From: Candidatus Latescibacterota bacterium
GTDB lineage: Bacteria > Latescibacterota > UBA2968 > GCA-2709665
DNA length: 64,000 nucleotides
Direction of reading: 5' to 3'
Assembly (NCBI GenBank): GCA_965219455.1
Contig: OZ244744.1
Span: forward strand, 5,376,001 to 5,440,000
Part shown: positions 24,884-57,197 of the stretch, piece by piece
Position numbering within the stretch: position 1 is the stretch's first letter
Layout: each line of letters starts with the position of its first letter
The notes under the pieces: generated by a model
Databases searched by the model: none
What the model saw: only the letters and a program-made list of their open reading frames with translations
What the model was told of the DNA's origin: nothing
Position numbers and translations under genes: made by a program

Positions 24884-24925
24884 TTGGTCTGTTTGACGTG
24901 ATGGCGTTTGAAAAAGGAGAGATAC

Positions 24926-38475: not shown

Positions 38476-38504
38476 TTGACACGTTCATTTATCTTGTCTA
38501 TATT
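38476..38504 (+). promoter_or_regulatory. Sigma-70-type promoter of the formate dehydrogenase operon
   Basis: TTGACA-17 bp-TATATT. Confidence 0.7.
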
Positions 38505-38592
38505 AAAGTGCTTACAACAACGACGTGTTCCACATGGCAGGGCGCCGGTTCGCGGTTGGTTTCTGATCCACGCGCATCGACGGGAGTGTGCA

Positions 38593-40254
38593 ATGGCAAG
38601 CCCTTCGGACGATGAACTGGTTCGACGCTGGAAAGACGAGCCCGCGCCGCTGCTGCCGTTGTTGCACGCGTTCCACGATCGGGATGGATATGTCTCTGAC
38701 GAGGCCATCCGGTCCATCTCGGCCGGCTTGAAAACACCACTGGCAGATCTTTTTGGCACCGTAACGTTCTACCATCACTTTTCGCGCAAGCCAGGCGGGC
38801 TGGAAAAATCCCGGGTGTGCACCGGCCCCATATGCGCGCTTCGGGGCGCACTGGAAATATGCGATGCCCTGAACGGTGAACCGATGGCATGCGCGGGCAG
38901 ATGTGACGAACCGGTACCGGTGATTCAGAAACACCGCGTCCTCGTGGGAACAGATGCACGGTGCCTGCAAGAAGTCCCGACGCCACCGCCCGCGCCAAAT
39001 CCGGGCCGCCTGGAGGAATGTGTCTTTCGTCACATCCGCGCACCGCACCGCGCCACCCTCCAAGGATATCGCGGGACCCGCGGGTACGACGGGTTGGAAA
39101 AAGCCATAATGAAAATGCGGCCCGTGGAGGTTGTGGAACGGGTCACGGAAAGCGGGCTGGCCGGCCGCGGAGGGGCCGGTTTCCCGACAGGCGCAAAATG
39201 GAAGGCGGTCGCAGAGGCCACGGGCGAGCCGAAAACGGTTGTCTGCAACGCCGATGAGGGAGAGCCGGGCTGTTTCAAGGATCGAGCCCTGATGGACTAC
39301 GATCCGCACGCGGTGCTGGAGGGAATGGCCATCGCCGCGTTCGCAACAGGCGCCACACAAGGATTCATCTATCTGCGGTACGAATACCCGCAAACATTGA
39401 GCATTCTGGAAAGCGCCATTGAAGACGCGGAGAAGGCCGGGTTGCTTGGCGACGGCATTTTGGGGACGGACTTCGACTTTCGGGTGCATATTCGGCGCGG
39501 CGGCGGGGCGTATGTGTGCGGAGAAGAGGGGTCGCTGCTGAACAGCCTGGAGGGCAAGCATCCGTTTCCGAGAAACCGCCCGCCATTTCCCGTAACCCAC
39601 GGATTTGAGGATCTGCCCACGGCGGTGAACAACGTTGAAACGCTTGTTGCCGTACCTCAAATCCTCCGAAAGGGTGCAGATTGGTACCGGGGTCTCGGTC
39701 TGAACGGTCAACCTGGCACCAAAGTAATCAGTCTGTCGGGCGATATCGCAAAGCCGGGCAATTACGAGATCCCGTTCGGCTTGCCTCTGAAAACACTGCT
39801 TTACGATTGGGGAGGCGGCACACCCGATGGCCGGAAAATCCAGGCGGTGACCATGGCAGGGTTGTCCGGCGGGTTCGTAGCCGGCGACGCACTCGACGCC
39901 ACTCTCGACGAACCCAGCCTCCGCAGTTATGGATCTTTTCTGGGCGCCGGGGGCATCATCGTATTCGACGACAGCCGGGATATGGTTGAGGTCGCCCATG
40001 GCGCGATGGCCTTTTTTGCAGACGAGTCCTGCGGAAAGTGTTTTCCGTGCCGCATCGGGACGCGCCGGTTGGCCGAGCGGCTGAGCGGCGTTGGCGGACC
40101 GAGACAGGTCGGTCCCTGGCGGGCGGAAGTTCTTGATATCGGCCAGACAATGATGGCCACCAGCGCGTGCGGCCTGGGTACGGCCGCGCCTCTGGTGACC
40201 GAGAGCCTGATGAAGTATTTTCCGAATCAAGTCGAAAAGCACGTTGAAGGGTAG
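38593..40254 (+). CDS. NAD-linked formate dehydrogenase diaphorase subunit (NuoE-NuoF / FdsG-FdsB fusion)
   Basis: VTFYHHF, VCTGPIC...CAGRC (2Fe-2S); GRGGAGFP, CNADEGEPG.FKDR, YVCGEE, NNVET, SCGKCFPCRIG. Confidence 0.9.
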   Translation: MASPSDDELVRRWKDEPAPLLPLLHAFHDRDGYVSDEAIRSISAGLKTPLADLFGTVTFYHHFSRKPGGLEKSRVCTGPICALRGALEICDALNGEPMACAGRCDEPVPVIQKHRVLVGTDARCLQEVPTPPPAPNPGRLEECVFRHIRAPHRATLQGYRGTRGYDGLEKAIMKMRPVEVVERVTESGLAGRGGAGFPTGAKWKAVAEATGEPKTVVCNADEGEPGCFKDRALMDYDPHAVLEGMAIAAFATGATQGFIYLRYEYPQTLSILESAIEDAEKAGLLGDGILGTDFDFRVHIRRGGGAYVCGEEGSLLNSLEGKHPFPRNRPPFPVTHGFEDLPTAVNNVETLVAVPQILRKGADWYRGLGLNGQPGTKVISLSGDIAKPGNYEIPFGLPLKTLLYDWGGGTPDGRKIQAVTMAGLSGGFVAGDALDATLDEPSLRSYGSFLGAGGIIVFDDSRDMVEVAHGAMAFFADESCGKCFPCRIGTRRLAERLSGVGGPRQVGPWRAEVLDIGQTMMATSACGLGTAAPLVTESLMKYFPNQVEKHVEG

Positions 40255-40309
40255 AGGTTCGCGCCGGTGTGCGTGAGTCCCGTTGCCCATATCCGGAAGG
40301 CGGAAAGTG

Positions 40310-43048
40310 ATGGTCTTAGTTGAAAATGGAGACAGTACCGCCACGATCACTCTGGACAACGAGAAGGTAACGTTTTCCCAAGATGAAACCATTTTTGACG
40401 TGGCGCAAAGGCACTCGAAAGATGTGCCGACGCTGTGTTACGACTCCCGGCTGAAGCCCTTTGGAAGTTGCCGCCTCTGCGTCGTGGATGTGGAGGGCGC
40501 GCGAACCCCCATGGCTTCATGCACCACCCACGCGACACCCGGGATGGTCGTGCGTACGGAGACGGATGCGATAATGAGGTATCGAAAGGTGTTGCTGGAG
40601 ATGGTGGCGTCCGAAAACCCCGAGATTGATGTAGACCCCCTTAGTGGATATGCTTCCCAGGAACTGGCCACACTTGTGGATCGATACGGCGCGCGTACCG
40701 GCCGGTTTAAGGGAGCGCAGTCCGGACGCAACAAGGTGGAGGACGACAATCCGTTTCTGCTGCGTGATTATGACAAATGTATCTCATGCTACCGTTGCGT
40801 CCGGGTGTGTTCCGAGCAGGAGGGAGACGACGCAATCAGCGTCATGAACCGCGGCTTCGAGACACAGATTGTAACCGAATTCGATGGCTTGCTGAAAAAT
40901 TCGTCCTGTACGTTTTGCGGGCAATGTATCCAGACGTGCCCCACGGGTGCGCTTGCGGACAAGAAGGCGTTGCGGGCATCCGGCGATCCGGGGTCAATTG
41001 AAAAGACGCGCACTATCTGCCCGTACTGCGGGGTGGGGTGTTCGGTGGACGTAATGACCAAAGGGGAAGAGATTGTGGGCATCCAGCCCGCGATGGACGG
41101 TCCGGCGAACCTGGGTGCGCTTTGCGTAAAAGGACAGTTTGCATTCGACTTCGTGCATCACCGCGATCGGCTGAAGATGCCGCTGGTGCGCCGGGGAGAC
41201 GGCAGACTGCAAGAAGCGGGCTGGGACGAGGCGCTGGATCGCGCAGCGAGGGGTTTCATGCATGCTCGGGAGGTACATGGGAAGTACAGCGCCTACGGGG
41301 TGGCCTCCGGCCGTGCGCCTACCGAAGCGTCCTACCTGATGGGGAAGTTCATCCGCGCCGGCTTCGGTACCAACTACATAGACAACTGCAGCCGTGCGTG
41401 ACACGCCCCAACGGTTGCCGGTCTGGCAGCCACGATCGGACGGGGCGCAATGTCGAATCCACTGGCCGATATGGACAAACCCGATGTGTTCTTCTGCATC
41501 GGGACGAATATGACCGAGTGTCATCCGGTGGCGGCCACGCGGCTGAAGAAAGCGATACGTACGGGGGCAAAACTGATTGTCGCGGATCCGCGGCGAATCC
41601 CGCTGGCGGAGATGGCGGATCTGTATCTTCCGCTGCGGGTGGGATCGGACGTTGCCCTCCTGCTGGGGATGGCGCATGTCATCGCAAGGGAGGGGTTGAT
41701 CGACGCGGACTTTGTCGAAAAGCGGACGGCAAAGTTTGAGGACTTCCTGGAGCATGTGAAGGAGTATCCGCCGGAATGGGCCGAGCGAATTACGGGGGTG
41801 CCCGCAAAGGATATCGAACTGGCCGCCATCTGGTACGGCATGGCCGATAGGGGTGCGATCTACTATACGCTGGGAATTACCGAGCATATCTGTGGCGTGG
41901 ACAATGTTCAAAGCCTGTGTAATCTGGCCCTGATGACGGGAAACGTGGGTCGCGTCGGTACGGGCATCAATCCGATGCGCGGTCAGAACAATATCCAGGG
42001 CGCGGGGGATTCAGGAGCCATACCGGATAAATTTCCCGGGTTCCAGCCGTGCGACGACCCGGAGAGCGCGACAAAATTCTCCCGGCTTTATGGCCAGCGT
42101 CTCGAAGTGGAAAAGGGCGTTACCAAGGTGGCGGCACTGAACCTGTGCGGCGACCGGATCCGTGCAATGATGATCGACGGCGAGAACACGGTTGTATCCG
42201 ATCCGGACAGGGCGCATTGCACGCGGGCATTACAGAGTCTGGACCACCTGGTGGTGATCGATATCTTCCTGACGGAAACGGCTGAACTTGCCGACGTCGT
42301 GCTGCCGGCCACGGCCTGGGGGGAGACGGATGGGACGTGCACGAATACGGAGCGGCGTGTCCAGCGGCTGCGCGCGGCCGTCCCGCCCCCTGGAGAAGCC
42401 CGGCCTGACTGGTGGATTGTAAGCGAGGTTGCGAAACGGATGGGAACGCCGGGATTCGAGTTCGCTTCTGCGAAGGAGGTGTTCAACGAGTTGTGCAGCG
42501 TGTCGCCTATATACGCAGGGCTGAATTGGGATCGAATAGAACACGGCCTGTACCAATGGCCGGTGCCGGACGGGGAACATCCGGGCACGCCTATGTTGCA
42601 CGAAGGCGAGTTCGCAAACGGCCGGGGTATTTTCACGAATCACCGCTATCGCAATCCGGCCGAGACGGTGAGTGACGCCTTTCCGGTTTGGTTGACGACC
42701 GGTCGCAGATTGCATGCCTACCATACACGGACCCAGACCGGACGAGCGACGGGGATGGATTATTTTCTTTCTGAAGAGACGCTGGAGGTGAATCCATCGG
42801 ACGTGTCGGCCTGGGGTCTGACAGACGGCGGCTGGTGCCGGATGTCGAGTGCACGCGGTTCCATTCGGATCAAGGTTAAGGCGACCCGGCAGTCTCCACG
42901 GGGCACGGTGTTCGCCAGTTTTGGTTTCAATGACGTTCCGGTGAATATTCTGACCGGTTCGGGATACGATCCAGTGACGGAAACAGCTGAATTGAAGGTT
43001 TGCCCGGTTCGTATTGAAGCGGTTGTGCCGGAACGACATACAACCTAA
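40310..43048 (+). CDS. fdhF: Formate dehydrogenase alpha subunit, selenocysteine-containing (Sec at TGA 41399-41401)
   Basis: ORFs 40283-41401 and 41450-43048 are in frame; reads IDNCSRA-U-HAPTVAGL...GAMSN; CPYCGVGC, RGQNNIQG, TNTERRVQ; SECIS-like hairpin follows. Confidence 0.93.
41413..41431 (+). promoter_or_regulatory. Bacterial SECIS element
   Basis: GGTTGCCGGTCTGGCAGCC hairpin beginning 11 nt after the UGA, resembling E. coli fdhF GGUUGCAGGUCUGCACC. Confidence 0.85.
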
Positions 43049-43057
43049 GGATTAAAA

Positions 43058-43888
43058 TTGAATTCAAGTATAACACAGCGAGTCGTGTCGAGAGTGAATG
43101 GCGGCTGTCCGGTGCGCTCGATTCAGGACGATATCGCAATTGAAGAGCCCCTGGAAATCCGCGTGGCGGGGGATCCGGTGGCCGTGACCATGCGTTCACC
43201 GGGAGATGACGCGCGGCTTGCAGTGGGTTTTCTGTTTTCGGAAGGGATTATCGCGTCTATCGAGGACGTGGGGCGCGTATATCACTGCGGAAGGCCCGGT
43301 ACAGAGGCATACGGAAATGCGATCGACGTGCTGCCCGCGCCCGGCCACAGTCTGGATATAGAGCGGGTAAACGCCAGCCGGCGCGGCACACTGACGACGT
43401 CGGCGTGTGGGGTCTGCGGCAGACAAGGCGTCGAGGACTTGGTGGCGCGTTGTTCTGCGATGCCGCCTGGGCCGAAAATATCGGCGGAATTGCTCTTTGA
43501 AACCATTGAACAAATGACACGGATTCAGCCAACATTCACCCATACGGGGGGTGTGCACGCCGCCGCCGCATTCGGCCCGGATGGCCACGCGCTTGTATGC
43601 TGCGAGGATGTAGGCCGACACAATGCCTTAGACAAAACCGTCGGCGCCCTGCTTTTCGACCGATTGGTGGGAACCTCTCGGGGACCCGCCGTACTGGCCG
43701 TAAGCGGCAGGGCGAGCTTTGAAATCGTCCAGAAAGCGGCAGTCGCACGGATTCCCATTGTTGCAAGCGTCTCCGCGGCCAGTTCTCTGGCGGTCGATCT
43801 TGCAACCGATGTGGGTATTACCCTTGCGGGATTCGTTCGCCGGAAGGGCTTCAACCTGTACGCGCACCCTGAACGGATCGTGCGATAA
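43058..43888 (+). CDS. fdhD: Formate dehydrogenase accessory sulfurtransferase FdhD
   Basis: EEPLEI, TMRSPG, SACGVCG, TGGVHAAA, EDVGRHNALDK, SGRASFE. Confidence 0.95.
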   Translation: MNSSITQRVVSRVNGGCPVRSIQDDIAIEEPLEIRVAGDPVAVTMRSPGDDARLAVGFLFSEGIIASIEDVGRVYHCGRPGTEAYGNAIDVLPAPGHSLDIERVNASRRGTLTTSACGVCGRQGVEDLVARCSAMPPGPKISAELLFETIEQMTRIQPTFTHTGGVHAAAAFGPDGHALVCCEDVGRHNALDKTVGALLFDRLVGTSRGPAVLAVSGRASFEIVQKAAVARIPIVASVSAASSLAVDLATDVGITLAGFVRRKGFNLYAHPERIVR

Positions 43889-43898
43889 GGAGTGGAAG

Positions 43899-44126
43899 AT
43901 GCCTATTTTTGAGTTTGTCTGCGGCGATTGCCGTCATCCCTTCGAGATATTCATTCAGGGCTCCCAGGAACCGCACTGCCCATCCTGTGGTAGCAGCGAA
44001 CTTGAAAAGCAACTTTCGGTCTTTGCCGTAAGCGGAGGCAGCGGCCAAACGGCGACGCGCGGACCCTCGGGGCCCTGCGGAACCTGCGGAGACCCCAGGG
44101 GTCCCGGCGCCTGTTCATTGAATTAG
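43899..44126 (+). CDS. FmdB family zinc-ribbon protein
   Basis: MPIFEFVCGDC...CPSCGS..LEKQLS; Cys-rich tail; RBS AAGGAG. Confidence 0.85.
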   Translation: MPIFEFVCGDCRHPFEIFIQGSQEPHCPSCGSSELEKQLSVFAVSGGSGQTATRGPSGPCGTCGDPRGPGACSLN

Positions 44127-44135
44127 ACAATGGAT

Positions 44136-44163
44136 CCCGGTTGAGAACGCCGGGTTTTTTTTT
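44136..44163 (+). terminator. Rho-independent terminator of the fdh operon
   Basis: CCCGG...CCGGG stem followed by T9. Confidence 0.8.
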
Positions 44164-44245
44164 GTACATAAATTGAAAATGCGAACGAATTTTCGAACGA
44201 TTCTGGCCAATCCCTATAGATCGTCTGCTACCTGAAGCATGTAAG

Positions 44246-44263
44246 AATTGCATTTGTGCAATT
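44246..44263. promoter_or_regulatory. Palindromic operator-like site
   Basis: AATTGCA-TTTG-TGCAATT upstream of the methyltransferase cluster. Confidence 0.45.
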
Positions 44264-44410
44264 TACCAATTCGTACTATCTTTGGCGGAGTTGGCACGTT
44301 TCGCGTCATCTCCCGCGCCGGACGACGTGCCTGGATTCAATTCGTCGATCTGGCCGAACCCCAACAGCCAATGTCAGGCCTGGTGGCTGGCGCGCCGGGG
44401 AGTATTCGCC

Positions 44411-46159
44411 ATGGGCGGCTTTTTCACAAAAGCCTACCGCCGAATTCAACAATCGATAGCCGAGGATCGTTGTGTGATTCTGGATGGCGGTGTTGCAACG
44501 GAGTTGGACCGCTTGGGTCTTGGGGATCACGCCATAAGCGATCACAGCCTCTGGGGTACCTGGGCGTTGTACAATGAACCCCTTTCGGTGCTGGATGTAC
44601 ACCGACGGTTTGCGGAGGTTGGCTGCGACTTGATTTCAACCAATACCTGGGGGATTCTCGACGGATCGGAGATAGACGCACGCGGGCTGACGGCAGGTGC
44701 GGGAATCTCGCATCGGATGGACGTGGCGCGACGCGGCATCAGGTTGGCTCGCCAGGCAATTCAACAGGTGGGCAGGGATGGCGAATGCGCCGTGGCCTTC
44801 AGCGTAAATGGAGACATCGATACGTCTCAACGCCTGGAACGATTGCAGCTGCTTTCGAGGGTATTTGCAGACGATCCACCCGATCTCATTTTGATGGAGA
44901 CGATGTCCATTGTCCGCGAAGACCTCACGCTTCCAGCGGTCGAACTGATGATTCAGACCGGAATTCCGGTGTGGTTGAGCTTCCGGCGATGCATTCAGGG
45001 TCTGTGCGGCGTGCATGGGCAGCACTGGGGGGGTCCCGAGGATGACTATTTCGGCAGATTGGCTGGCCGTTTCGAACGAATGGAAATAGGGGCCCTCTTA
45101 ATCAATTGTCTGCCGGTGGAACACGTACCGGGTATGATTTCCTGGCTGAGGGATTTTACGGATCTTCCACTGGGCGTGTACCCGAACCTGGGGCGTTACC
45201 TGGACCCGGGTTGGAAATTCGACGACACGGTGGGATCCCGATGCTTTGCGGCGCTGGCCCAGGCCTGGCGCGAAGAGGGAGCGCAGATCGTCGGTGGGTG
45301 CTGTGGTGTCACTCCCGAACACATTGCCGAAGCCGGGAAGGCGCTGGCTTGCACCCGGGCGGGTCGAAAGCGAGTCCGGCCTCATACATCTGCGGGGGGT
45401 GGAGCCGATCGGGACGATCCGGTCGTTCCGTGCCCATGGGTCGACGAAAACATGCGGACGCTCTTTCCGTTGCCATTCCCTGAAATCGTGTGCGATCCGG
45501 AAGTTTTCGCTCCCACACAAGGTAGCTTTCTAATCTGGAAGCATCTCTTTCGAACGGGCGCCGGTCAAGGCAAACGCTGTCTGGATGTGGGGTGCGGCAC
45601 CGGAATCCTGTCCGTGCAACTCGCGTTGAACGGAGCGGAGCAGGTGGTCGCAATTGATATCCAGAAAGAAGCCGTAGGCAATACGATGACAAACGCTTTT
45701 CGAAACGGCGTGGCCGACCGCGTTTCCGGACGGGTTGTGGATCTTTATACCTATATTCCGGAAGAGAGGTATGACCTGGTAATCGGCAGTCTTTATCAGA
45801 TGCCGGTGGATCCGATTCGGCAAACAACCGGACATCGTCCCGCCGATTTCTGGGGCAGAAATCTGCTGGATCACCTGATTTCTCTGCTGCCGGAGATGCT
45901 TGCCGACGAAGGTGTCGCCTATCTGATGCAGATTTCGGCTTTGAGTCAGATTCGCACGTCCGAGCTGATTTCGATCGCCGGACTGGACGCGACGGTAATC
46001 GACTTCAGTTTTTTTTACTTCAGCCCGGTATTCGACGAAAATACCGATCAGATCAAGCGGGTCTCCGATTTGTCGGATGCTTTTCACCTGAGTTTCGGGC
46101 AGGAAAACGTGATGGTGATGTACCTGCTGGAGATTAGGTTCGGGGGACCGAAGCCATAG
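44411..46159 (+). CDS. Homocysteine S-methyltransferase domain fused to a class I SAM-dependent methyltransferase
   Basis: ILDGGVATEL, LMETM, LINC, VYPN, VGGCCG..PEHI (Zn ligands); then LDVGCGTGILS, AIDI. Confidence 0.85.
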   Translation: MGGFFTKAYRRIQQSIAEDRCVILDGGVATELDRLGLGDHAISDHSLWGTWALYNEPLSVLDVHRRFAEVGCDLISTNTWGILDGSEIDARGLTAGAGISHRMDVARRGIRLARQAIQQVGRDGECAVAFSVNGDIDTSQRLERLQLLSRVFADDPPDLILMETMSIVREDLTLPAVELMIQTGIPVWLSFRRCIQGLCGVHGQHWGGPEDDYFGRLAGRFERMEIGALLINCLPVEHVPGMISWLRDFTDLPLGVYPNLGRYLDPGWKFDDTVGSRCFAALAQAWREEGAQIVGGCCGVTPEHIAEAGKALACTRAGRKRVRPHTSAGGGADRDDPVVPCPWVDENMRTLFPLPFPEIVCDPEVFAPTQGSFLIWKHLFRTGAGQGKRCLDVGCGTGILSVQLALNGAEQVVAIDIQKEAVGNTMTNAFRNGVADRVSGRVVDLYTYIPEERYDLVIGSLYQMPVDPIRQTTGHRPADFWGRNLLDHLISLLPEMLADEGVAYLMQISALSQIRTSELISIAGLDATVIDFSFFYFSPVFDENTDQIKRVSDLSDAFHLSFGQENVMVMYLLEIRFGGPKP

Positions 46160-46352
46160 CTGGACCGGTTTGAAAACATCGCGCCGACCGATCCCGAACG
46201 TGGGGATACCCGGCTTCGGCGTCGGGGATCGGCTTGCAGCCTTGCGGTCGGCACGGCGTCTGGAGCACAAAACGGCCTCCGCTGATCGTGGTCAGCGCGT
46301 TTGAGCGAGGTTCTCCGGCGGTGTGGGCGCCGAATTCGCCAGGGAATGCAAT

Positions 46353-47183
46353 ATGGTCGATCAATTCCTTCAAGGACGCGCGGCAATTGTCACGGGAGGC
46401 GCGAGTGGACTGGGCAGGGCCATCGCATTGCGCCTGGCAGGCCGGGGTGCGGACATCTGCATTATGTCCCTGAGCAGCCGGCGCGTGAAAAGGGTACACA
46501 GTGAGGTGAAATATTTCGCGGACGTGGACGAAATCGAGACGACCCGGCAGGAAATCCGGGAAATGGGCGTACGGTGCATCGGTCTGGACGGGGACGTCAG
46601 TTCGGAAACCGACGTGGAGGACATGATCGGCCAGACCGTCAGAACCTTCGGCAGGTTGGATGTTCTGGTGAACAACGCCGCGACCAACGTTATACATCCG
46701 ATCCTCAACCACGACAACCACGCCTGGAGACGCGTGCTCGATGTGAATCTATTCGGACCCTACCTGTGTACCCGGAACGCACTGCCCCATATGATCGAAA
46801 GCGGATGGGGACGAATCGTCTCTATCGGTTCCACCAATTCCCACGTCGGGTCGTCCGATTACAGTGCTTACGCGGCATCCAAACACGGATTGTTGGGGTT
46901 CAACAGATCTCTCGCATTGGAGGTGGCGCGCCACCATATTACGGCCAATACCGTCAGCCCGGCAACAATCGAAACGCCGTCCGGACATATGCATCTGCTG
47001 CGGTGGGCGGAAGACCAGGGTCTTTCTCGTGAAGCCATGAGAGAGGAAATCATGAAATCCTATCCGCAGGGCAGATTTCTGCGCCCGGAGGAAATTGCCG
47101 ACCTGGTTGTCTATCTGTGCCGGGAAGAAGCGCAGGGAATAAACGGGGAAGATATCCGTGTGACAACGGGTGCGATGTATTAG
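46353..47183 (+). CDS. Classical SDR oxidoreductase
   Basis: TGGASGLG, VNNAA, YAASKHG, INGE. Confidence 0.92.
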   Translation: MVDQFLQGRAAIVTGGASGLGRAIALRLAGRGADICIMSLSSRRVKRVHSEVKYFADVDEIETTRQEIREMGVRCIGLDGDVSSETDVEDMIGQTVRTFGRLDVLVNNAATNVIHPILNHDNHAWRRVLDVNLFGPYLCTRNALPHMIESGWGRIVSIGSTNSHVGSSDYSAYAASKHGLLGFNRSLALEVARHHITANTVSPATIETPSGHMHLLRWAEDQGLSREAMREEIMKSYPQGRFLRPEEIADLVVYLCREEAQGINGEDIRVTTGAMY

Positions 47184-47248
47184 ATGGGGCCGCGAAATAG
47201 GTACCCGAAACCACCCTGTCCCGCCCTTGGCGTGTGAAGGAGGCGTTA

Positions 47249-48031
47249 GTGGATCTGGGATTGAAAGGCCGCCGGGCGCTGGTGACTGGCGCGAGTAAGG
47301 GCATCGGCAAGGCAATTGCATTTGAACTGGCAACGGAAGGTGCCGATCTTGCAATCTGCGCGCGCGGGTCCCTCGCGCTTCAGGATACGGCGGCAACGCT
47401 TAAGGCGGCAACGGGCGTGAACGTGTTCGCAGCCACCGCGGACGTCACGGTCGACATCGAGACCCAGGCGTTTGTGGAGCAGGGCGCCGCCGCGCTGGGT
47501 GGGCTGGATATTCTGGTGAACAACGCTGGCAGTGCGCTTCCCGGTACCTTCGAAGAGGTGGACGAGGCTAGCTGGCGTGCGGATCTGGACGTGAAGCTGT
47601 TTGCCGCGATGCACTGTGTGCGTACCGCCCTGCCTTATCTGAAAAAGAGCCCGCAGGCGAGGATCATCAATATCAACTCGATTGTCGGACGTCAGATTGC
47701 ACCGGAATACATCGCCAACAGCACCGATAGGGCGGCCTGTCTGGCGTTCAGCAAAGGCCTTTCGGACAACCTGGCACCATACGGAATTCTCGTTAACAGT
47801 GTGAATCCCGGCAACGTGAAGAGCCAGGCATGGGGCAGCACATTGGACTATTTCGCACCGGACGCGGACCTGAAGGACTATTATGCACTGGCAAGCCGGG
47901 AGACACCGCTGGGCAGGGTGGCGGAAGCGGCCGAGATTGCGGCAGTGGTGACTTTTCTGGCAAGCAAACGGGCGAGCTACGTCACCGGAGCGTCCATCGA
48001 CGTGGACGGCGGATTGGTGAGGTACATTTAG
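47249..48031 (+). CDS. SDR oxidoreductase with atypical catalytic motif
   Basis: TGASKGIG, VNNAG, NSTDRAA in place of YxxxK, YVTG..I.VDGG; GTG after AAGGAGG. Confidence 0.9.
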   Translation: MDLGLKGRRALVTGASKGIGKAIAFELATEGADLAICARGSLALQDTAATLKAATGVNVFAATADVTVDIETQAFVEQGAAALGGLDILVNNAGSALPGTFEEVDEASWRADLDVKLFAAMHCVRTALPYLKKSPQARIININSIVGRQIAPEYIANSTDRAACLAFSKGLSDNLAPYGILVNSVNPGNVKSQAWGSTLDYFAPDADLKDYYALASRETPLGRVAEAAEIAAVVTFLASKRASYVTGASIDVDGGLVRYI

Positions 48032-48227
48032 GTCCGGCGAGACAGAATCCGTGTGCCCGGGGATTCGGACGTTTTGCCTGCGGGCCCAGGTTCGTCGGCA
48101 AAAGATCGCGTGTTGCAGAAATTGCGACACGTGGACCTGGCGTCCCGTTCTACCGCTCGGCAATCCTGGACACGGTCCGTCTGCCCGTCACGTCGAACAA
48201 GAGGCCCCGCACGTTAAGGTAATTGTA

Positions 48228-50483: not shown

Positions 50484-50514
50484 ACAATAGAGATACACCG
50501 GAGAACCCATTCAG

Positions 50515-51582
50515 ATGAACGTCGGAAATCCGGTCAACCCCCGAAGCCTGTTGCAGCGCCTCGACGATGACGTGGTGATCTGCGCCGAGGGTTATCTGTT
50601 TGAACTCGAGCGCCGAGGGTATCTGCAGGCGGGCCCTTTCGTTCCGGAAGTCGTGCTCGAGCATCCCGAGGTCGTGGCCGGGTTGCACCGGGAATTCTGG
50701 CGTGCGGGTTCGGACGTGATTGAGGCGTTTACGTATTACGCCCATCGCGAAAAGCTGCGCCTTATCGGCAAGGAACATCTTCTGGAACCACTGCAGAAAA
50801 GTGCGCTGGCGATAGCGAAATCGGTCGCCGCCTCGGTCGAAGGAGAACGCCCGCTGGTTGCCGGCAACATTTGCAATACCAACATTTGGGATCCGGAGGA
50901 TCGCACAACGGACGCGCAGGTTGCAGCGATGTTCGACGAACAGGTGGCCTGGGCGGTTGAGGCGGGAGTCGATTTCATAATCGCGGAGACATTCTCCTTT
51001 TTCGGGGAGGCCGCGTTGGCGCTGGCGTCTGTCAAACGCGCTGGATTGTCGGCCGTGGTGACCTTTGCTCACCATCGGGAGGAAGGGTTGAGGGATGGGA
51101 TCCTGCTGGATGAGGCCGCAAAACGTCTGGAGCAGGCCGGAGCGGAAGTCGTGGGGGTAAATTGCACGAGAGGACCAAAGACGATGCTGCCCGACGTGGA
51201 ACGCATTCGGCGCGCGGTATCGTGTCACGTAGCGGCATTGCCTGTTCCGTATCGCACGACGGAGAATCAGCCGACGTTTCAGTCCCTTCAGGAGCCGGGC
51301 TCCGAGCCGCCACCTGCAGAACGTTCGTTTCCGACGGCGTTGGATCCCTTTACCTGCCACAGGTACGAAATGGCCGCGTTTGCCCGTCGGGCCTTCGATA
51401 TGGGTGTCCGATACCTGGGCGCCTGCTGCGGATCCGGGCCTCATCACGTCAGATCAATCGCGGAAGCGTTGGGACGAATCCCGCGTGCCAGCCGGTACTC
51501 TCCGGACATGTCCAGGCACTATGCGCTGGGCAGCGATTCCAGCCTGAAGAACCAAAACCGGGATTTTGTCGATAAGTTGTGA
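50515..51582 (+). CDS. Betaine-homocysteine S-methyltransferase-like protein
   Basis: EGYLFELERRGYLQAGPFVPE, LHREF.RAGSDV..AFTYY, GVNC, FPTALDP, GACCG. Confidence 0.88.
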   Translation: MNVGNPVNPRSLLQRLDDDVVICAEGYLFELERRGYLQAGPFVPEVVLEHPEVVAGLHREFWRAGSDVIEAFTYYAHREKLRLIGKEHLLEPLQKSALAIAKSVAASVEGERPLVAGNICNTNIWDPEDRTTDAQVAAMFDEQVAWAVEAGVDFIIAETFSFFGEAALALASVKRAGLSAVVTFAHHREEGLRDGILLDEAAKRLEQAGAEVVGVNCTRGPKTMLPDVERIRRAVSCHVAALPVPYRTTENQPTFQSLQEPGSEPPPAERSFPTALDPFTCHRYEMAAFARRAFDMGVRYLGACCGSGPHHVRSIAEALGRIPRASRYSPDMSRHYALGSDSSLKNQNRDFVDKL

Positions 51583-51756
51583 GATATCCCGTGGCCACAC
51601 CGTATTGGCAATCGTGTATTTTCTCGGAATTCTCCCTGTGTCCCGGAGGGCGCAAGCGCCGAGTCGGCCATGACGATGGATCCACCGGCGGAGGAATGGT
51701 GACATATTTCCGGGACGGGACACAAGTTTCGGAATCGACCCGGAGCGTTGAAGTCG

Positions 51757-53358
51757 ATGCGATCCTGCGCGGACGCCATTGCGGAAACTTTGCACGAAGG
51801 AAGGGTCCGGTACGTATTCGGTCATCCGGGCGGCGAGGTCGTGGATCTGATCGATGCGCTGGAGAACACGGGAATACGATTCGTGCTGACCGGCCACGAG
51901 GCCGCCGCGGCCTTTATGGCCAGCGCGATCGGGCGCCTGACCGGGACTCCTGGCGTCTGCCTGGCGACACTGGGGCCAGGCGGCTGCAATCTGGTTCTGG
52001 GGGTCGGCTCCGCTTACCTCGACAGGGACCCGATGCTGGCGATTTCAGCGCGGAGCCCCACATCGCGGGCCAGAGTGAGCGAGAAACAGAATCTGCTTCT
52101 CAATGAGCTGTTCGATCCCATCTGCAAATGGTCCGTCGCCCTGGGAACAACCGGCGTGGAAGCGACGGTGCGGTCCGCGTTGACGCTTTCGGCGGCGCCG
52201 CCTGTCGGCCCGGTGTACCTCACGATACCGAATGACGTCGCAGTGGCCGATACGGCGCCCGGCGTGGCAGCGTCGCCACCCTCCACGTCTCGCGTGTGCA
52301 ACGGGGACCTCGAAGCGATAACAAGGGCACTGAATCGGGCCGAACGTCCTGTTGGTGTTGTGGGCGTCGCCTTGAATGCCCGGCTGGATTCCGCCGCAGT
52401 GCGTCGGTTTTTTACGGAATCGCAAATCCCCTACGTTGTTCTTCCACAGGCAAAGGGCATTCCGGATGAGTTTGGTCCGGGGTATCTGGGCACCGTGGCG
52501 TCGGCCGCAGGAGACGCCGTACTTGTGAATCTGATCGGTCTCAGCGATTGCTTGCTGGGCGTGGGTTTCGATCCCGTGGAGTCGGCGCAGGACTGGCATC
52601 TTCGCCATCCGGTCTACTCCCTGGCCAATTCCTCAATTGCCTTTGGCGACTTTAAACCGGTTGCGGAGTGTGTGGGCGACGTCACATCCATGCTCGATCG
52701 GTTGCTGGAGGTGTATGACCGAGGCGCACGCTGGACGGCGGCCGAAATTCGCAACGCGCAGGTTGCCGTCGCGGATGCGATCCGTCCCGGGACGGATGCC
52801 AGCACAAACGGTCTTTCCCCTTACCACTTAATGCGTGAATTGCGCGATACGCTGCCCGAGGAGACCATTCTGTCAGTCGACGTAGGCGCCCACAAGATGC
52901 TGGTTTCGCAGGTCTGGCGGGCGCGTTCGCCAGGAACCTTTCTGACGTCGAACGGCCTGTCCGCGATGGGCTACGGGCTGCCGACGGCGCTGGCGGCGGC
53001 GCTGATCCGGCCAGGCCGACCGGTGGCAGGCGTGTTCGGGGACGCCGGTTTCGCGATGATGGTTCAGGAATTGGAAACGGCGCGCAGGTTGGACCTGCGT
53101 CCGTTACTGGTCGTGCTCTGCGACCGATCTCTGGCGATCGTCAAGGTCGCACAGGCCATGCGTAACATCCCTTACCGGGGCGTTGATTTCCAACCGGTGG
53201 ACTGGGCAAAGGTCGCTGACGGGTTCGGCGCACGGGGTTTAACCGTGACCACCCTGGACGCAGTGCGGAGGGTGGGGGAAGCGTGGCTGGCAAAACCGCA
53301 GTTGACGGTCGTGGCTGCGCGGGTGGACGATGAATTATACACAGCGCTGGAATATTGA
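51757..53358 (+). CDS. Thiamine pyrophosphate-dependent enzyme (acetolactate synthase-like family)
   Basis: FGHPGGE, HEAAAAFMA, TLGPG, DVGAHK, SNGLSAMGYGLP, GDAGF. Confidence 0.88.
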   Translation: MRSCADAIAETLHEGRVRYVFGHPGGEVVDLIDALENTGIRFVLTGHEAAAAFMASAIGRLTGTPGVCLATLGPGGCNLVLGVGSAYLDRDPMLAISARSPTSRARVSEKQNLLLNELFDPICKWSVALGTTGVEATVRSALTLSAAPPVGPVYLTIPNDVAVADTAPGVAASPPSTSRVCNGDLEAITRALNRAERPVGVVGVALNARLDSAAVRRFFTESQIPYVVLPQAKGIPDEFGPGYLGTVASAAGDAVLVNLIGLSDCLLGVGFDPVESAQDWHLRHPVYSLANSSIAFGDFKPVAECVGDVTSMLDRLLEVYDRGARWTAAEIRNAQVAVADAIRPGTDASTNGLSPYHLMRELRDTLPEETILSVDVGAHKMLVSQVWRARSPGTFLTSNGLSAMGYGLPTALAAALIRPGRPVAGVFGDAGFAMMVQELETARRLDLRPLLVVLCDRSLAIVKVAQAMRNIPYRGVDFQPVDWAKVADGFGARGLTVTTLDAVRRVGEAWLAKPQLTVVAARVDDELYTALEY

Positions 53359-53412
53359 AATCCCGTGGCGTTCCGGTATCGGAACGCCCGGGATGTGAAC
53401 GTGAGGTAACTC

Positions 53413-54750
53413 GTGCGTTTACCTGAACACGCGAAATATCTGATCATTGGCGCCGGGGTGCACGGTCTGAGCACCGGATTTCACCTCGCGCAAGACTTGA
53501 AAAGGCGACGCCGGGGAGGCGGGTCTGACGTGCTGATTGTGGACAAAACAGGGGTGGCCGCGGGCGCTTCCGGCATCGCCTGCGGCGTCATCCGAAACAA
53601 CTATTACCAACCGGCCATGCGCGAACTGATGGCTCACAGCGTCCATATATGGGAAACCGATCCGGAGGCATTCAGTTATCACCCCGTTGGGTACATGCAG
53701 ATAAGCCCCGAGTCCATGCACGAGGATGTTGCGAGCATCGCTCAACAGCAGCGCAAAATCGGTTACGAATCTGAGTTTATAGAAGGAGAAGCAGACTGCC
53801 TGAAATATATGCGGGGGCTGTTTCACGACTGGCAGGCCAGGGGAATCACATCCGTTCTTCACGAAAAAAAGGGGGGATATGCCAACAACCGGACGTCGAT
53901 GATGGGTCTGGCCGACAAGAGCAGGAGCGAAGGCGTGGGGATTCTGGAAGGCGTTGCGGTGACCGGATTTAGGTACGATGGCGGTGCAATATCGGCGGTG
54001 GAAACGGATCACGGCGTGATCCGGGCAGACGAGGTTATCATTGCCGTGGGGCCGTGGGCGAAATTGCTCTGGGAAATGCTGGACCTGCCCACGTCGGTGA
54101 GCATTAAGGGTTCGGATGGCGCCATGCATCACGATATCCCGATGTGGAATTACTGGTGTCTTCAGGAAGGTACGCTGGGCGTGGACCCTCATTATCTCAA
54201 AACCAACGACGGCAGGATGCCTCCGGTGATTCATCTGGACACAGACGCACCGCTGTATTCGGACGTCGACGGTTCGCTGATTACGGATCGCCTGTGGGGA
54301 ATATATTACAAACCCGATTTCCACTTCGGGGGCGTGCAGGGAGGGGCTATGCCCTACAGGGTGGAAAGACCACCGGGCGAAGTTGCGGTGGACCCCTATG
54401 GTCCGGAATCTCCCGATTTTATCGTTGGCGACCAGTTCGCGCACCAGTGGTGTTCCGCACTGGCATTTTGTCATAAGCGGTTCGAAGGAAAGTCTCAACT
54501 CTTCAAAAAGGAGCCGTCCGGTGGCATCGGCGCGTTTACACCCGATAGTTTCCCGGTGTTCGACCGGTTTCACAAGAACTGTTACATCATTGCGGATTCC
54601 AACCACGGGTACAAGATGATTGGCGTGGGTAAGCTGGTGGCGGAGGAACTGCTGGGGCAACGCTCCCGTCTCCTGGAGCCGTTCCGTTTTTCCCGTTATG
54701 CCAAGGGTAGACTGCACCCGGTGTCCAACAGCCCGTTTCCCTGGAGTTGA
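53413..54750 (+). CDS. FAD-dependent oxidoreductase, sarcosine oxidase beta / N-methylglutamate dehydrogenase subunit A-like
   Basis: IIGAGVHGLS, ASGIACGVIRNNYYQP, FTPDSFPV, SNHGYKMIGVG, C-terminal SNSPFPWS. Confidence 0.8.
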   Translation: MRLPEHAKYLIIGAGVHGLSTGFHLAQDLKRRRRGGGSDVLIVDKTGVAAGASGIACGVIRNNYYQPAMRELMAHSVHIWETDPEAFSYHPVGYMQISPESMHEDVASIAQQQRKIGYESEFIEGEADCLKYMRGLFHDWQARGITSVLHEKKGGYANNRTSMMGLADKSRSEGVGILEGVAVTGFRYDGGAISAVETDHGVIRADEVIIAVGPWAKLLWEMLDLPTSVSIKGSDGAMHHDIPMWNYWCLQEGTLGVDPHYLKTNDGRMPPVIHLDTDAPLYSDVDGSLITDRLWGIYYKPDFHFGGVQGGAMPYRVERPPGEVAVDPYGPESPDFIVGDQFAHQWCSALAFCHKRFEGKSQLFKKEPSGGIGAFTPDSFPVFDRFHKNCYIIADSNHGYKMIGVGKLVAEELLGQRSRLLEPFRFSRYAKGRLHPVSNSPFPWS

Positions 54751-54920
54751 GATTCGACCGCGAGCATCCGGACACCCCGATGCCAGAGAGCGCCGATAAG
54801 TCAATCCAGGCCAGTGACGTCAATACGCCCGGCCCCTTGTTGAAATCCGGTTGCTGCATTTCGCGGCCACAAATTGGAAACCCGGTGGCCCGCTTCAGGA
54901 GCACACAGGGAGATGTACTG

Positions 54921-56168
54921 ATGCAACAACCCGACGTCCGGCGACGCATGCGGGTTCGGCAAACGGATTGGGGCGACGCTGTGCGTATCGATCTCAATCA
55001 ACTGGGCGCGCGGTTGCCATCGCAGGGAATGCAGGGCGCGACATGGTCGGAAGCAACCAGCGAGGCATTGCGGGACGAATGGTCGGAATCCCAGAACGAG
55101 GCGCTTTGCGACACGATGGCGGAGGTCGCCGCCAGATGGGGCGGGACCTTCGATTCGTTTGCTGAGTGGACGGTTTTGCACAACAAGCTGTACGACGGCA
55201 CCCACATGCGCGATGTGCGCCGGGCGCGGTTCAGCCACGGGTACCGCGCGGCGATCACGACACTCGGCTGGGCGCATCCTGAGACCAGACTTTCCACGTG
55301 TATTCAGGCAGTGGGTTATGTTCCGAAAGCCAAGGTGACGTTCGAGCAGGCCATGTGGCGGCCGGAATCACTGTACAATACTGAGTTTATGGCGCTTGCG
55401 CCTGCCGTGGTGACGCGGTTCGGCGGTGGCCGGCACGTCCACTTGTCGGGCGTTGTCGCGTGGGACGAGGAGATAAATCCGCAATTCGAAGGACAGCCGG
55501 AACGTCAGGTTTCCCGCGTGTTCGACCTCATTGAGGACGTCTTCCAGGAGGCGGGAGGATCGCTGGCCGACGTTGTGCGACTCCGCCCATTCGCTCACTG
55601 TACGAGGATTGCGAGACTCATCCGAGCGGAGGTCAGCCGCCGCTGGGCGGGCCATCCACGGCCCGTGGTGATGATGTCGGACAGCCGGCGCTTTGGCGAT
55701 CCCCCAAGGCTGTATGCGGAAATTCAGGTCATGGGGGTCATGTCGGACGGCCATAGTGGTGTGCGGCACTCGGAAATGGATCTTCCTGCCGGGATTCCTG
55801 ATGAGGGCGCCACGCGTATTCGCTTCAGTCGGGCTCGTGATTGGGAACTGATCCAGGTAGGCGAACTGCGGGCGCCGCCGGGTACGGACCCGAACCGGGA
55901 GGCCGAGCACGTCACCGGACAGATGGCCGCGGCCCTCGAACGAGTATCGCTTACGCGGAGCGATGTCTGTTTGACATTCGCCTACGTCAGTTCAGCGGAA
56001 GCTGCCACAGCTTTCCAGGAAGCCGTGACCCAGGCGGCGCCGATGGACACAGTGCACGTGTTGCCCTGTCCCGCAATGCCCGAACTGGAGGGACGACGTA
56101 TCAAGGTGGAGATGACGGCCAGAAGACGCCTGGCGCCGGTATCGAGGACGGGTTCCGTGCGCCCCTGA
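54921..56168 (+). CDS. Multi-domain Rid/YjgF (RidA-fold) protein
   Basis: LSGVVA...Q...VFD.I...GGSLADVVRL...EIQ; similar units before and after; RBS AGGGAG. Confidence 0.65.
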   Translation: MQQPDVRRRMRVRQTDWGDAVRIDLNQLGARLPSQGMQGATWSEATSEALRDEWSESQNEALCDTMAEVAARWGGTFDSFAEWTVLHNKLYDGTHMRDVRRARFSHGYRAAITTLGWAHPETRLSTCIQAVGYVPKAKVTFEQAMWRPESLYNTEFMALAPAVVTRFGGGRHVHLSGVVAWDEEINPQFEGQPERQVSRVFDLIEDVFQEAGGSLADVVRLRPFAHCTRIARLIRAEVSRRWAGHPRPVVMMSDSRRFGDPPRLYAEIQVMGVMSDGHSGVRHSEMDLPAGIPDEGATRIRFSRARDWELIQVGELRAPPGTDPNREAEHVTGQMAAALERVSLTRSDVCLTFAYVSSAEAATAFQEAVTQAAPMDTVHVLPCPAMPELEGRRIKVEMTARRRLAPVSRTGSVRP

Positions 56169-57185: not shown

Positions 57186-57197
57186 GTCGCATTGAGC

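Follow-up and report, generated by a model that had tools for sequence, protein, structure and literature searches.

The subject of this report is a stretch of 64,000 nucleotides from a Candidatus Latescibacterota bacterium (assembly GCA_965219455.1, contig OZ244744.1, positions 5,376,001 to 5,440,000 of the forward strand), which is called the window throughout. It is best read as two independent units, namely the operon of a selenocysteine-containing formate dehydrogenase (FDH) and, behind it, the local and reduced version of a catabolic module. This second unit (unit 2, 44.4–56.2 kb) consists of eight genes, all on the plus strand (Table 1). They encode a fusion of a homocysteine S-methyltransferase (HMT) with a class-I S-adenosylmethionine (SAM) methyltransferase (MTase), two short-chain dehydrogenases (SDR1 and SDR2), an amidohydrolase of the dimethylformamidase (DMFase) family, a protein resembling betaine-homocysteine methyltransferase (BHMT), a thiamine diphosphate (ThDP) enzyme, a DAO-family flavoprotein, and a protein with three YjgF/Rid-like repeats. 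The two SDRs, the amidohydrolase and the ThDP enzyme form a core that is, to judge from gene neighbourhoods and phylogeny, a real and horizontally shared module moved between phyla. An earlier note on the same DNA had joined both units into one candidate pathway for an N-formyl or N-methyl compound whose formate is passed on to the neighbouring FDH. Every gene in its inventory is present and co-oriented on the plus strand. Of the catabolic route for a methylated or formylated amine that it proposed, the recurring core, its descent from one clade and the BHMT assignment hold, whereas formate as the product, the coupling to FDH and the membership of the fusion protein are weakened or not supported.

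A module shared between phyla

Loci with a gene of the DMFase family were compared in a genome collection (79 loci) and in a metagenome collection (22 loci). Cluster homologues together with a DMFase-like gene of at least 56% identity are carried by 6 of the 79 genome loci. Three of these belong to Latescibacterota (L001, L002, L006) and have all genes in full synteny; one Bryobacterales locus (L003) has SDR1, SDR2, the ThDP gene, the amidohydrolase gene (DMFA2), BHMT and DAO at 56–74% identity, and another (L005), which is broken up by transposases, has DMFA2, BHMT and DAO; and the locus from Acidiferrobacteraceae (L004) has SDR1, SDR2, DMFA2 and the ThDP gene at 53–68% identity. The other 73 loci hold DMFase paralogues at 30–44% identity without partner genes. 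Six of the 22 metagenome loci (L080, L081, L082, L084, L088, L101) repeat the three patterns, the rest being too short or paralogues. Across lineages the identity of the core ranges from 53 to 74%, and homologues of SDR1 and SDR2 in other lineages reach 59–72% and 67–81%, respectively. SDR1, SDR2, the DMFase-like gene and the ThDP gene occur together in loci from three phyla, and the neighbourhood analysis that the earlier note had called for has in this respect come out in its favour. The BHMT-like and DAO genes usually accompany the core, being present in the Latescibacterota and the Bryobacterales versions.

A tree of DMFase-like proteins has 79 rows; 6 of the 84 loci offered were left out, as their best alignments spanned fewer than 600 residues of the query. 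One clade of 11 rows, with a value of 99 in the Shimodaira–Hasegawa-like approximate likelihood ratio test (SH-aLRT), holds the window together with Bryobacterales, Acidiferrobacteraceae and family f1 of Latescibacterota. Apart from it stand 65 paralogues, among them other Latescibacterota and Acidobacteriota. For each gene compared, identity to the window declines in one order, from the sister genera to Bryobacterales and then to Acidiferrobacteraceae. Because the DMFase-like proteins form one clade and the rank order of identity is the same across genes, we regard the core as having moved between phyla as one module. The earlier note had named a lack of co-occurrence elsewhere and mixed origins as what would speak against its proposal; for the core we find joint loci and, at an SH-aLRT of 99, a single clade.

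The Bryobacterales copies have an integrase and transposases of the IS91 and DDE types at their flanks or inside them (L003 16755–18829; L005 8825–9910 and 13810–14851), which fits horizontal mobility. No paper dealing with the cluster, the fusion protein or DMFase homologues in sponges came up in a literature search at the level of titles and abstracts.

The DMFase-family amidohydrolase

The amidohydrolase, whose length of 751 aa is taken as in the database cluster P0002, matches the DMFA2_C domain (PF20254) with 239.7 bits against a cut-off of 27. Its top structural relative is the large subunit of DMFase (6LVB_A), which aligns over nearly the whole chain (residues 15–731 against 4–758; E 2e-85, 290 bits). 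Residues Y398, Y420, H499 and E501 align with Y399, Y440, H519 and E521 of DMFase and are invariant in 23 relatives. We take these four DMFase residues to be the iron ligands and the base, the iron site being made up of two tyrosines and one glutamate with a histidine nearby; the position of E521 is corroborated by the mutant chain 6LVE among the structure matches. The protein is placed in the DMFase family by full-length homology and by the retained residues of the mononuclear iron site, and because of this alignment and this conservation it is very probably an active metal amidohydrolase.

Membership of this family does not appear to dictate a formyl over an acetyl substrate, because N-acetyl-(R)-beta-phenylalanine acylase (8HUY; residues 16–730, E 4e-78, 266 bits) scores nearly as close as DMFase itself. 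The release of formate that the earlier note had ascribed to the enzyme is not supported for the same reason. The likeness to the DMFase of Paracoccus (PDB 6LVB/6LVC) extends to the full-length homology, the DMFA2_C domain and the aligned iron-site residues, but the cluster has neither a small-subunit gene nor methylamine genes, and the nearest homologues are uncharacterised. The acylase (PDB 8HUY/8I5A) belongs to the same family, which also cleaves N-acetyl amides of amino acids, and has a near-equal score; the similarity is nonetheless distant, and no sign of a preference for aromatic beta-amino acids is seen here.

DMFase proper (EC 3.5.1.56) is an alpha2beta2 enzyme, but no gene for its small subunit lies adjacent to the amidohydrolase gene. 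The sole upstream open reading frame (ORF), at 47830–48222, was considered as a DmfA1-like subunit and rejected: it is of low complexity and overlaps SDR2 out of frame, and its conservation is confined to the overlapping part. In the sister-genus locus L081 the position of the small subunit is taken by a LarA-like gene.

The closest relatives of the enzyme (84–89% identity) come from Candidatus Latescibacterota genomes. Relatives at 52–53% identity sit in two loci with Opp/Dpp-type ATP-binding cassette (ABC) transporters and BetI-type regulators, one of which also has a D-Ser-dehydratase-like gene and RidA. In all, 583 matched stretches in the genome collection encode a DMFase-like relative. 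Matches with one TGA (G128, G107, G136, G122, G126, G118, G146, G141, G133) were considered as selenoprotein paralogues and set aside, the TGA being a likely true stop: in the one of four fetched paralogue loci where the BLAST match spanned the TGA, this codon lies at the C-terminal end, as would fit a true stop and a match extending beyond it. In two genomes the DMFase-like orthologue is split into two overlapping pieces (G057:C5 1522390–1524638 and G060:C1 1205696–1207908), which could be a frameshift or a decaying gene.

BHMT-like protein, ThDP enzyme and flavoprotein

Over residues 4–341 the BHMT-like protein matches mammalian BHMT1 structures (1UMY, E 3e-53; 1LT7, E 8e-53), and the earlier assignment to BHMT is upheld by this full-length match; against the bacterial BHMT model NF005718 the protein stays below the cut-off (89.5 vs 338 bits). 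The translation contains cysteine motifs GVNC and GACCG, which match the three-cysteine pattern of zinc-dependent members and which, by motif, we take to be the zinc triad. The genome has ten PF02574 matches, eight of which are further BHMT-like paralogues, and because of these the specificity for the methyl donor likely differs between the copies.

The paralogues lie on contig C1 of the window's genome (G000) at 3188877, 3532533, 3638674, 3639901, 3674829, 3680640, 3681709 and 2787094 (loci L130–L133). Several of them adjoin genes for GFO_IDH_MocA oxidoreductases, an ILVD/EDD dehydratase, and xylose-isomerase-like, heparinase II/III-like and AAT-family hydrolase proteins, and such carbohydrate-like surroundings are unusual for homocysteine methyltransferases.

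The ThDP enzyme belongs to the acetolactate synthase family, an assignment made from the best 25 of 52 NCBIfam matches, so that other ThDP families are possible. It stays under the family cut-offs (NF006187, 357 vs 509 bits; NF006378, 304 vs 510), and its nearest structures are catabolic acetolactate synthases.

For the flavoprotein the best matches are SoxB, the beta subunit of L-proline dehydrogenase (1Y56_B, E 9e-16), L-amino acid deaminase, MTOX and dimethylglycine oxidase (DMGO); the protein itself stays far below every NCBIfam cut-off (TIGR01373, 70.3 vs 529 bits). Pfam and NCBIfam scans found no partner gene of the SoxA/D/G or MgdB/C/D type among the cluster genes. The MgdA- or Sox-type flavoprotein of the earlier note survives in part: the nearest relatives do act on N-substituted amino acids, whereas the scores and the missing partner subunits do not bear out the type.

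The combination of a BHMT-type enzyme with a flavoprotein like SoxB or DMGO recalls the glycine betaine route, in which BHMT is followed by dimethylglycine and sarcosine oxidases, and the logic is matching, the first methyl group going to homocysteine and the later ones being removed oxidatively. The two differ in that the flavoprotein of the cluster lies far below the SoxB cut-off and has neither SoxA/D/G partners nor a folate-binding domain, and in that the glycine betaine route has no need of the amidohydrolase, the ThDP enzyme, the SDRs or the triple-Rid protein.

The triple-Rid protein

The last gene of unit 2 starts at the ATG at 54921 and not at 54747, because a 60%-identical homologue in locus L081 fixes the start. 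What the earlier note had called a Rid protein turns out to have three repeats in one chain of 415 aa, and the single-domain architecture of RidA (about 130 aa, homotrimer) is not what is found here. The AlphaFold2 model, built with 16 homologues, has a pLDDT of 92 and a pTM of 0.91 and shows three beta-alpha-beta repeats. It superposes on the chorismatase 5A3K_A with Z 21.7 and a root-mean-square deviation (rmsd) of 3.4 Å over 281 of 335 residues at 11% identity, and Foldseek agrees on the chorismatase fold (4BPS, E 4e-10). Structures of single RidA/RutC proteins match only the middle repeat (Z about 16), which is also the only one to match PF01042 (Ribonuc_L-PSP; 43.7 bits, profile positions 18–73). 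At E ≤ 1e-3 only RutC matched among the NCBIfam models, and no chorismatase model did. The family is very small, with 16 representative proteins at E ≤ 1e-30 among 1.84 billion.

Chorismatases such as FkbO, Hyg5 and XanB2 (PDB 5A3K, 5AG3, 4BPS) share with the protein the architecture of three YjgF repeats in one chain, but identity is 10–15% and the cluster has no shikimate or polyketide context. Fused triple RidA proteins (3x-RidA) have been described already (Niehaus et al., 2015; PMC4433059); these too have three Rid-like repeats per chain, whereas the protein of the cluster is far more divergent, has only one repeat that is recognisable by sequence and comes from a family of very few members. 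In cyclic amide hydrolases (AtzD/TrzD/barbiturase, 'Toblerone' fold) each of the three repeats carries a Ser-Lys dyad (PMC4051656). Such an identity was rejected, as the 16 members have no invariant Lys and one invariant Ser (S79); barbiturase 5HWE matches the model weakly (Z 9.6, rmsd 5.4 Å).

In our own reading of the alignment, the position that corresponds to the RidA arginine varies between R, P, E and Q, and HMMER alignments to RutC/Rid end before the motif. The conserved, substrate-binding arginine of RidA is Arg105 in RidA numbering. The handling of imines that the earlier note expected of a Rid protein stays one possibility among others, given the chorismatase-like triple-repeat fold.

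Among the family members P0091–P0105, P0102 (725 aa) carries a carbon-nitrogen hydrolase domain fused to its N-terminus, and in G059 and G060 a CN_hydrolase gene lies just before the ThDP gene. A 149-aa ORF after the flavoprotein gene of Bryobacterales was tried as a triple-Rid relative and is unrelated; elsewhere in the Bryobacterales genomes Rid-domain matches are only weak.

A possible catabolic route

We hold it quite possible, as a tentative reading, that unit 2 breaks down an amino or hydroxy acid that is taken up by the cell, bears an amide and is methylated on N or S. The reading is suggested by the joint presence of a conserved amide hydrolase, an enzyme of onium-methyl transfer, an oxidase of secondary amines, a ThDP enzyme for 2-oxo acids and two dehydrogenases, and by a carboxylate importer and extra amidases that some versions add. 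Gene content, conservation and fold are what was observed, and all chemical steps are drawn from family membership. The amidohydrolase would strip off an N-acyl group, formyl or acetyl, after which the BHMT-like enzyme would move an onium methyl group to homocysteine and yield methionine. The flavoprotein would then oxidise the leftover secondary or tertiary amine to an imine, and the triple-Rid protein with its chorismatase fold might, in a speculative step, hydrolyse this imine or a product of enamine or enol type. What results, a 2-oxo acid or a diketone, would be decarboxylated or cleaved by the ThDP enzyme, and the SDRs would interconvert hydroxyl and keto groups.

A more specific form of this reading, which we consider unlikely but not far-fetched, is that sponge-associated Latescibacterota, and by horizontal transfer Bryobacterales and Acidiferrobacteraceae, have a new route for a methylated, N-acylated, hydroxylated, carboxylic compound derived from the host or from algae. 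Such a route would be opened by an iron amidohydrolase of the DMFase family and would combine a BHMT-like, B12-independent demethylase with hydrolysis of an imine, enamine or enol ether by the triple-Rid protein; an unusual betaine or another marine solute conjugated to an amino acid are candidates for the compound. If the catabolic reading holds, uncultured marine and sponge-associated bacteria would use a methylated, amide-containing solute in a way so far uncharacterised, and the large and mostly unassigned DMFase-like family would gain its first physiological context, as would the very small triple-Rid family of chorismatase fold. New features of the more specific route would be its opening by a DMFase-family enzyme, the BHMT-like enzyme as a B12-independent, homocysteine-dependent demethylase, and the hydrolysis by the rare triple-Rid family; homocysteine-dependent demethylation through expanded BHMT-like paralogues could be a general strategy of the lineage.

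The formate dehydrogenase operon and its link to the module

Unit 1 (38.4–44.16 kb) is by all indications a complete operon for a cytoplasmic, NAD-linked selenocysteine FDH that ends in its own terminator. The frame of FdhA is open only when TGA at 41399–41401 is read as selenocysteine, which gives U373 in the motif CSRAUHAPT of the read-through translation, and a match to the Rfam selenocysteine insertion sequence SECIS_3 begins at this codon (41396–41454, 51.5 bits, E 1.8e-9; the gathering score of 63 is not reached). An in-frame TGA in the active site, a SECIS element and FdhD are accordingly all found, as in a selenocysteine FDH. The FDH genes listed in the earlier note are there, but the list had omitted the 75-aa Zn-ribbon ORF at 43899–44127, a homologue of which lies downstream of FdhD in four cluster-free relatives and directly after it in three of the four.

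In the gap 3' of the Zn-ribbon gene a hairpin (44136–44154) is followed by nine T, in agreement with the terminator that had been placed between the two units. Terminator-like sites overall are not above chance (16 found vs 18.4 expected), this hairpin being the strongest and intergenic. The start at 38476 that the earlier note had given is a promoter-like hexamer pair (11/12 matches), and such pairs are not above chance in this region (4 found vs 6.7 expected). Between the units no riboswitch or other RNA element was found at E ≤ 1, save a chance-level small-RNA match over the terminator.

The FDH lies directly upstream of the cluster in the genera g1, g4 (G043, L081) and g5 (G060), with intervening genes that differ, and this adjacency is limited to three kin genera of one Latescibacterota family. 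An operon of NuoEF, FdhA, FdhD and the Zn-ribbon gene without a downstream cluster homologue is found in G040, G041, G042 and, at the level of the order, G070. No FDH lies within 10 kb of the module in the Bryobacterales or Acidiferrobacteraceae loci. An FDH near the DMFase paralogue in L035 was not counted, as a transposase lies in between. Because of the terminator, the stand-alone operon in relatives and the FDH-free modules in other phyla, the FDH appears as an ancestral, self-contained unit whose tie to the cluster is supported by position only, a restriction that the earlier note had itself made. Its proposal that formate is oxidised by the neighbouring enzyme is weakened, since the adjacency is synteny within one family and the FDH stands alone in four relatives. 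The FDH is best read as a general C1 enzyme of the lineage and a chance neighbour, with no dedicated partnership with unit 2, and its presence is no evidence for formate as a product.

Contigs from RNA libraries (two metatranscriptome runs, both from one study and with the label 'sponge metagenome', and a third run whose kind is uncertain) map near-identically onto both the FDH unit and unit 2. One of them bridges the fusion gene and SDR1 (46017–47010), another SDR1 and SDR2 (46832–47245), and one starts at 44306, past the terminator; the libraries may contain DNA, the contigs give neither strand nor level, and stretches without contig cover carry no interpretable meaning.

It was the version of the earlier note that both units are one system, in which the amidohydrolase is a true formamidase and its formate, possibly together with formate from oxidised N-methyl groups, is oxidised by the adjoining selenocysteine FDH. 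We consider this distinctly unlikely. The retained iron site and DMFase as top structural relative (290 bits) would suit it, as would an FDH that stays directly upstream in g1, g4 and g5 despite differing genes in between, RNA-library contigs on both units, and the domain content of the FDH, which is cytoplasmic and NAD-linked and fits formate made inside the cell. It is opposed by the terminator that closes the operon, by the operon alone in four relatives, by modules in two other phyla without FDH within 10 kb, by the N-acetyl acylase being nearly as close as DMFase (266 bits) and by the transposase in the sole paralogue locus with a nearby FDH. Moreover, g1, g4 and g5 are kin, and therefore their shared adjacency counts as about one event.

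Fuller versions in related lineages

Extra genes are found in the metagenome locus L081 and in both sister genera, g4 and g5. They encode an enolase-superfamily enzyme, PhyH dioxygenases, a LarA-like racemase (307 bits with the malate racemase model) and a small cupin, and further ones a SAM methyltransferase, a D-2-hydroxyacid dehydrogenase, GFO_IDH_MocA, PTE-family, Ldh_2 and CN_hydrolase proteins and a tripartite ATP-independent periplasmic (TRAP) transporter, DctPQM. The TRAP genes belong to the G060 version, with DctP and DctQ also in G059. The nearest entries to the enolase-superfamily enzyme are of the galactonate-dehydratase type (5OLC, E 2e-65; 4GGB, E 4e-62). Both the Bryobacterales and the Acidiferrobacteraceae versions have, in addition, PhyH and an amidase of the isochorismatase family, together with an EamA transporter in the former and an MttB-family methyltransferase in the latter. 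A second methyl-transfer gene stands at or near the cluster in four of the five versions, being the HMT-MTase fusion in the window, an HMT in G060, an MttB fragment in G043 and MttB in L004.

Because the enolase-superfamily, LarA-like, PhyH and TRAP genes of the sister genera are absent from the window's genus, this genus seems to hold a reduced version of the module. In searches of its own genome the best matches to the enolase-superfamily gene were paralogues at 36–37% identity, and for DctP likewise only a paralogue level of 30% was reached. In the 5.8-Mb genome there are 25 matches to the enolase-superfamily (MR_MLE) gene of L081, none above 37% identity, and an orthologue is absent.

The fuller clusters bring to mind the catabolism of hydroxyproline betaine and proline betaine, which Zhao and co-workers reportedly described in 2013 with an enolase-superfamily epimerase, demethylases and DAO-type oxidases. 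The enzyme classes are similar in that both have an enolase-superfamily member, DAO-family oxidases, a way of removing methyl groups and a deamination. In that route, however, demethylation is by Rieske oxygenases and there is no counterpart of the amidohydrolase or the ThDP enzyme, and the enolase-superfamily member of the cluster, unlike the one there, resembles acid-sugar dehydratases.

This resemblance leads to another substrate class. The module might break down a sugar acid that carries modifications, or a compound of the uronate type; one example would be a methylated acid sugar, N-acylated or amidated with an amino acid, that stems from the glycans of a host or of algae. In that case the classical sequence of dehydrogenase, dehydratase and dehydrogenase would fall to the SDRs and the enolase-superfamily enzyme, and the amidohydrolase, methyltransferase and flavoprotein would only trim the substituents. 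In four of the five versions the enolase-superfamily gene, nearest to 5OLC, 4GGB and models of acid-sugar dehydratases, stands beside SDR1 and SDR2, and the same loci have the LarA-like racemase, PhyH proteins like 'sporadic carbohydrate cluster' oxygenases, and GFO_IDH_MocA, PTE-family and Ldh_2 genes. The paralogues of the BHMT-like protein that adjoin GFO_IDH_MocA, ILVD/EDD and heparinase-like genes, and the 25 matches to the enolase-superfamily gene in the window's own genome, lean the same way. We nevertheless think a sugar-acid route rather improbable: the enolase-superfamily, LarA and PhyH genes are lost from the window's own cluster, the scanned cluster genes include no glycoside hydrolase, kinase or aldolase, and onium methyl donors are unusual on sugars. 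To our knowledge, enzymes of the BHMT type (PF02574) are known only with onium methyl donors.

The extra genes could also belong to biosynthesis. A methylated sulfonium or ammonium solute would be made from methionine or another amino acid, which the flavoprotein would convert to a 2-oxo acid and a dehydrogenase to a 2-hydroxy acid, followed by methylation through the SAM methyltransferase and decarboxylation by the ThDP enzyme or an oxygenase. In its favour, the flavoprotein and the ThDP enzyme of the sister-genus versions are accompanied by a LarA-like racemase, a D-2-hydroxyacid dehydrogenase and a SAM methyltransferase, and in the window a SAM-MTase domain is fused to HMT. The amidohydrolase, the BHMT-like enzyme, the TRAP importer (G060, partly G059), the isochorismatase and the CN_hydrolase, however, fit uptake and breakdown better, and the cluster has no exporter specific to it, so that we regard biosynthesis as highly improbable.

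Coherence of unit 2

Within family f1 the DMFase-like orthologue is present in 18 of 21 other genomes (g1 14/14, g4 2/2, g5 2/2); the two g2 genomes have only DMFase paralogues or nothing, and g3 has nothing. The flavoprotein gene is found in 19 of the 21 and the ThDP gene in 18, both including g3 and both being absent from g2.

In G040, G041, G042 and G060 the orthologue of the fusion gene lies far from both the FDH and the cluster, and the fusion gene adjoins the cluster only in the window's genus. It is single-copy in its own genome and belongs to a family of 2652 proteins at E ≤ 1e-3 among the candidates scored, with relatives at 61–70% identity labelled Poribacteria, Acidobacteria, Tectomicrobia and Planctomycetes. 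Because of this large independent family and the distant location in four relatives, the fusion appears to be a local neighbour in this genus that stands outside the core, and its earlier inclusion as a pathway member is weakened. The combination of HMT with a class-I MTase makes a widespread, well conserved and apparently uncharacterised family.

Several findings weigh against catabolism of a methylated, amide-bearing acid by unit 2 as a whole, and against the separation of the two units. Given the genes that the sister genera have and the window's genus does not, the cluster of the window may lack some of its parts, or its substrate may be another compound or one further down the route. In G042 (g3) a block of ThDP, MTase, 2-hydroxyacid dehydrogenase (2-HADH) and triple-Rid genes stands next to ABC genes without an amidohydrolase or SDRs, and the flavoprotein gene of G060 is 0.76 Mb away from the cluster; the module is fluid, and therefore the eight genes need not form one pathway. 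The kinship of the enolase-superfamily member, which is most like acid-sugar dehydratases and cycloisomerases, and the sugar-type oxidoreductases beside the BHMT-like paralogues point towards a carbohydrate-like substrate rather than a simple amine. The adjacency to FDH, persisting across three genera despite the changed genes in between, leaves some room for a functional tie, and the character of the RNA libraries set out above is a further weakness.

Carried to its end, this fluidity would mean that there is no single pathway and that unit 2 is a mosaic of small modules (SDR-SDR-amidohydrolase-BHMT, ThDP-tripleRid, and the flavoprotein), packed by rearrangement between FDH and the ABC/RND anchors. 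The ThDP, MTase, 2-HADH and triple-Rid genes beside ABC genes in G042, which has no amidohydrolase match, agree with such a mosaic, as do the flavoprotein gene away from other cluster homologues in G042 (none within 10 kb) and in G060, the fusion gene elsewhere in four relatives, and gaps of 163–196 nt between several genes of unit 2. Yet in each of the five versions, those of two other phyla among them, the ThDP and amidohydrolase genes lie near each other, BHMT and the flavoprotein travel with the module in Bryobacterales, and joint transfer is favoured by the high identity across phyla, whose rank order is shared by all genes. We judge a mosaic quite unlikely, and keep to the tentative reading of unit 2 as a catabolic module for a methylated, amide-bearing acid.

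Features of the window

The features of both units are collected in Table 1. For the NuoE/NuoF fusion the coordinate 38416 is the start of the ORF, the true start lying probably a few tens of codons further in, and the start of the HMT-MTase fusion was set at 44411 by inspection, its ORF starting at 44282.

Table 1. Genes and signals of the FDH operon (unit 1) and of unit 2, in window coordinates.
Feature	Coordinates	Strand	Domains and basis
NuoE/NuoF-type diaphorase fusion, electron-transfer subunit of soluble FDH	38416..40254	+	Pfam 2Fe-2S_thioredx, Complex1_51K, SLBB, NADH_4Fe-4S; NCBIfam nuoF_fam 427 bits
FdhA, FDH alpha subunit, NuoG-like N-terminus, selenocysteine U373	40283..43048	+	TIGR01591 136 and 545 bits on its two halves
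FdhD sulfurtransferase	43058..43888	+	PF02634 224.7 bits; NF001943 265 bits
75-aa Zn-ribbon protein, last gene of FDH operon	43899..44127	+	PF09723 49.8 bits
Intrinsic-terminator-like hairpin and T-run closing the FDH unit	44136..44164	+	6-bp stem with 5 GC pairs, then TTTTTTTTT
Homocysteine S-methyltransferase (MmuM-like) + class-I SAM methyltransferase fusion, about 585 aa	44411..46159	+	Pfam/NCBIfam domains
SDR1, short-chain dehydrogenase	46323..47183	+	Nearest to 3-hydroxybutyrate dehydrogenase models, below their cut-offs
SDR2, short-chain dehydrogenase	47234..48031	+	Pfam/NCBIfam domains
DMFase-family amidohydrolase, LamG-like N-terminal part + DMFA2_C domain, 751 aa	48228..50483	+	PF20254
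BHMT-like zinc-dependent methyltransferase, homocysteine as predicted acceptor	50515..51582	+	PF02574 141.8 bits
ThDP enzyme, acetolactate synthase family	51748..53358	+	TPP_enzyme N, M and C domains
DAO-family flavoprotein	53413..54750	+	Distantly like sarcosine oxidase beta, L-proline dehydrogenase beta, L-amino acid deaminase
Protein with three YjgF/Rid-like repeats, chorismatase-like fold, rare family, 415 aa	54921..56168	+	ATG 54921, not 54747

On its 3' side unit 2 is followed by genes for an ABC ATPase, a fusion of an ABC-2 permease with an M1-like region, and an RND pump. The fusion, a 1122-aa ORF at 57192–60560 after the ABC ATPase, consists of an ABC-2 permease region, an M1-peptidase-like region and a Golvesin C-terminal domain. 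The block of ABC ATPase and ABC-2-M1 genes is a syntenic anchor that adjoins the ThDP gene in G042 and G060. Further upstream in the window, at 24908–32058, two very large ORFs on the plus strand (730 and 1619 aa) carry lamin-tail, cohesin, dockerin, He_PIG and Ig-like domains and may encode a cell-surface scaffold.

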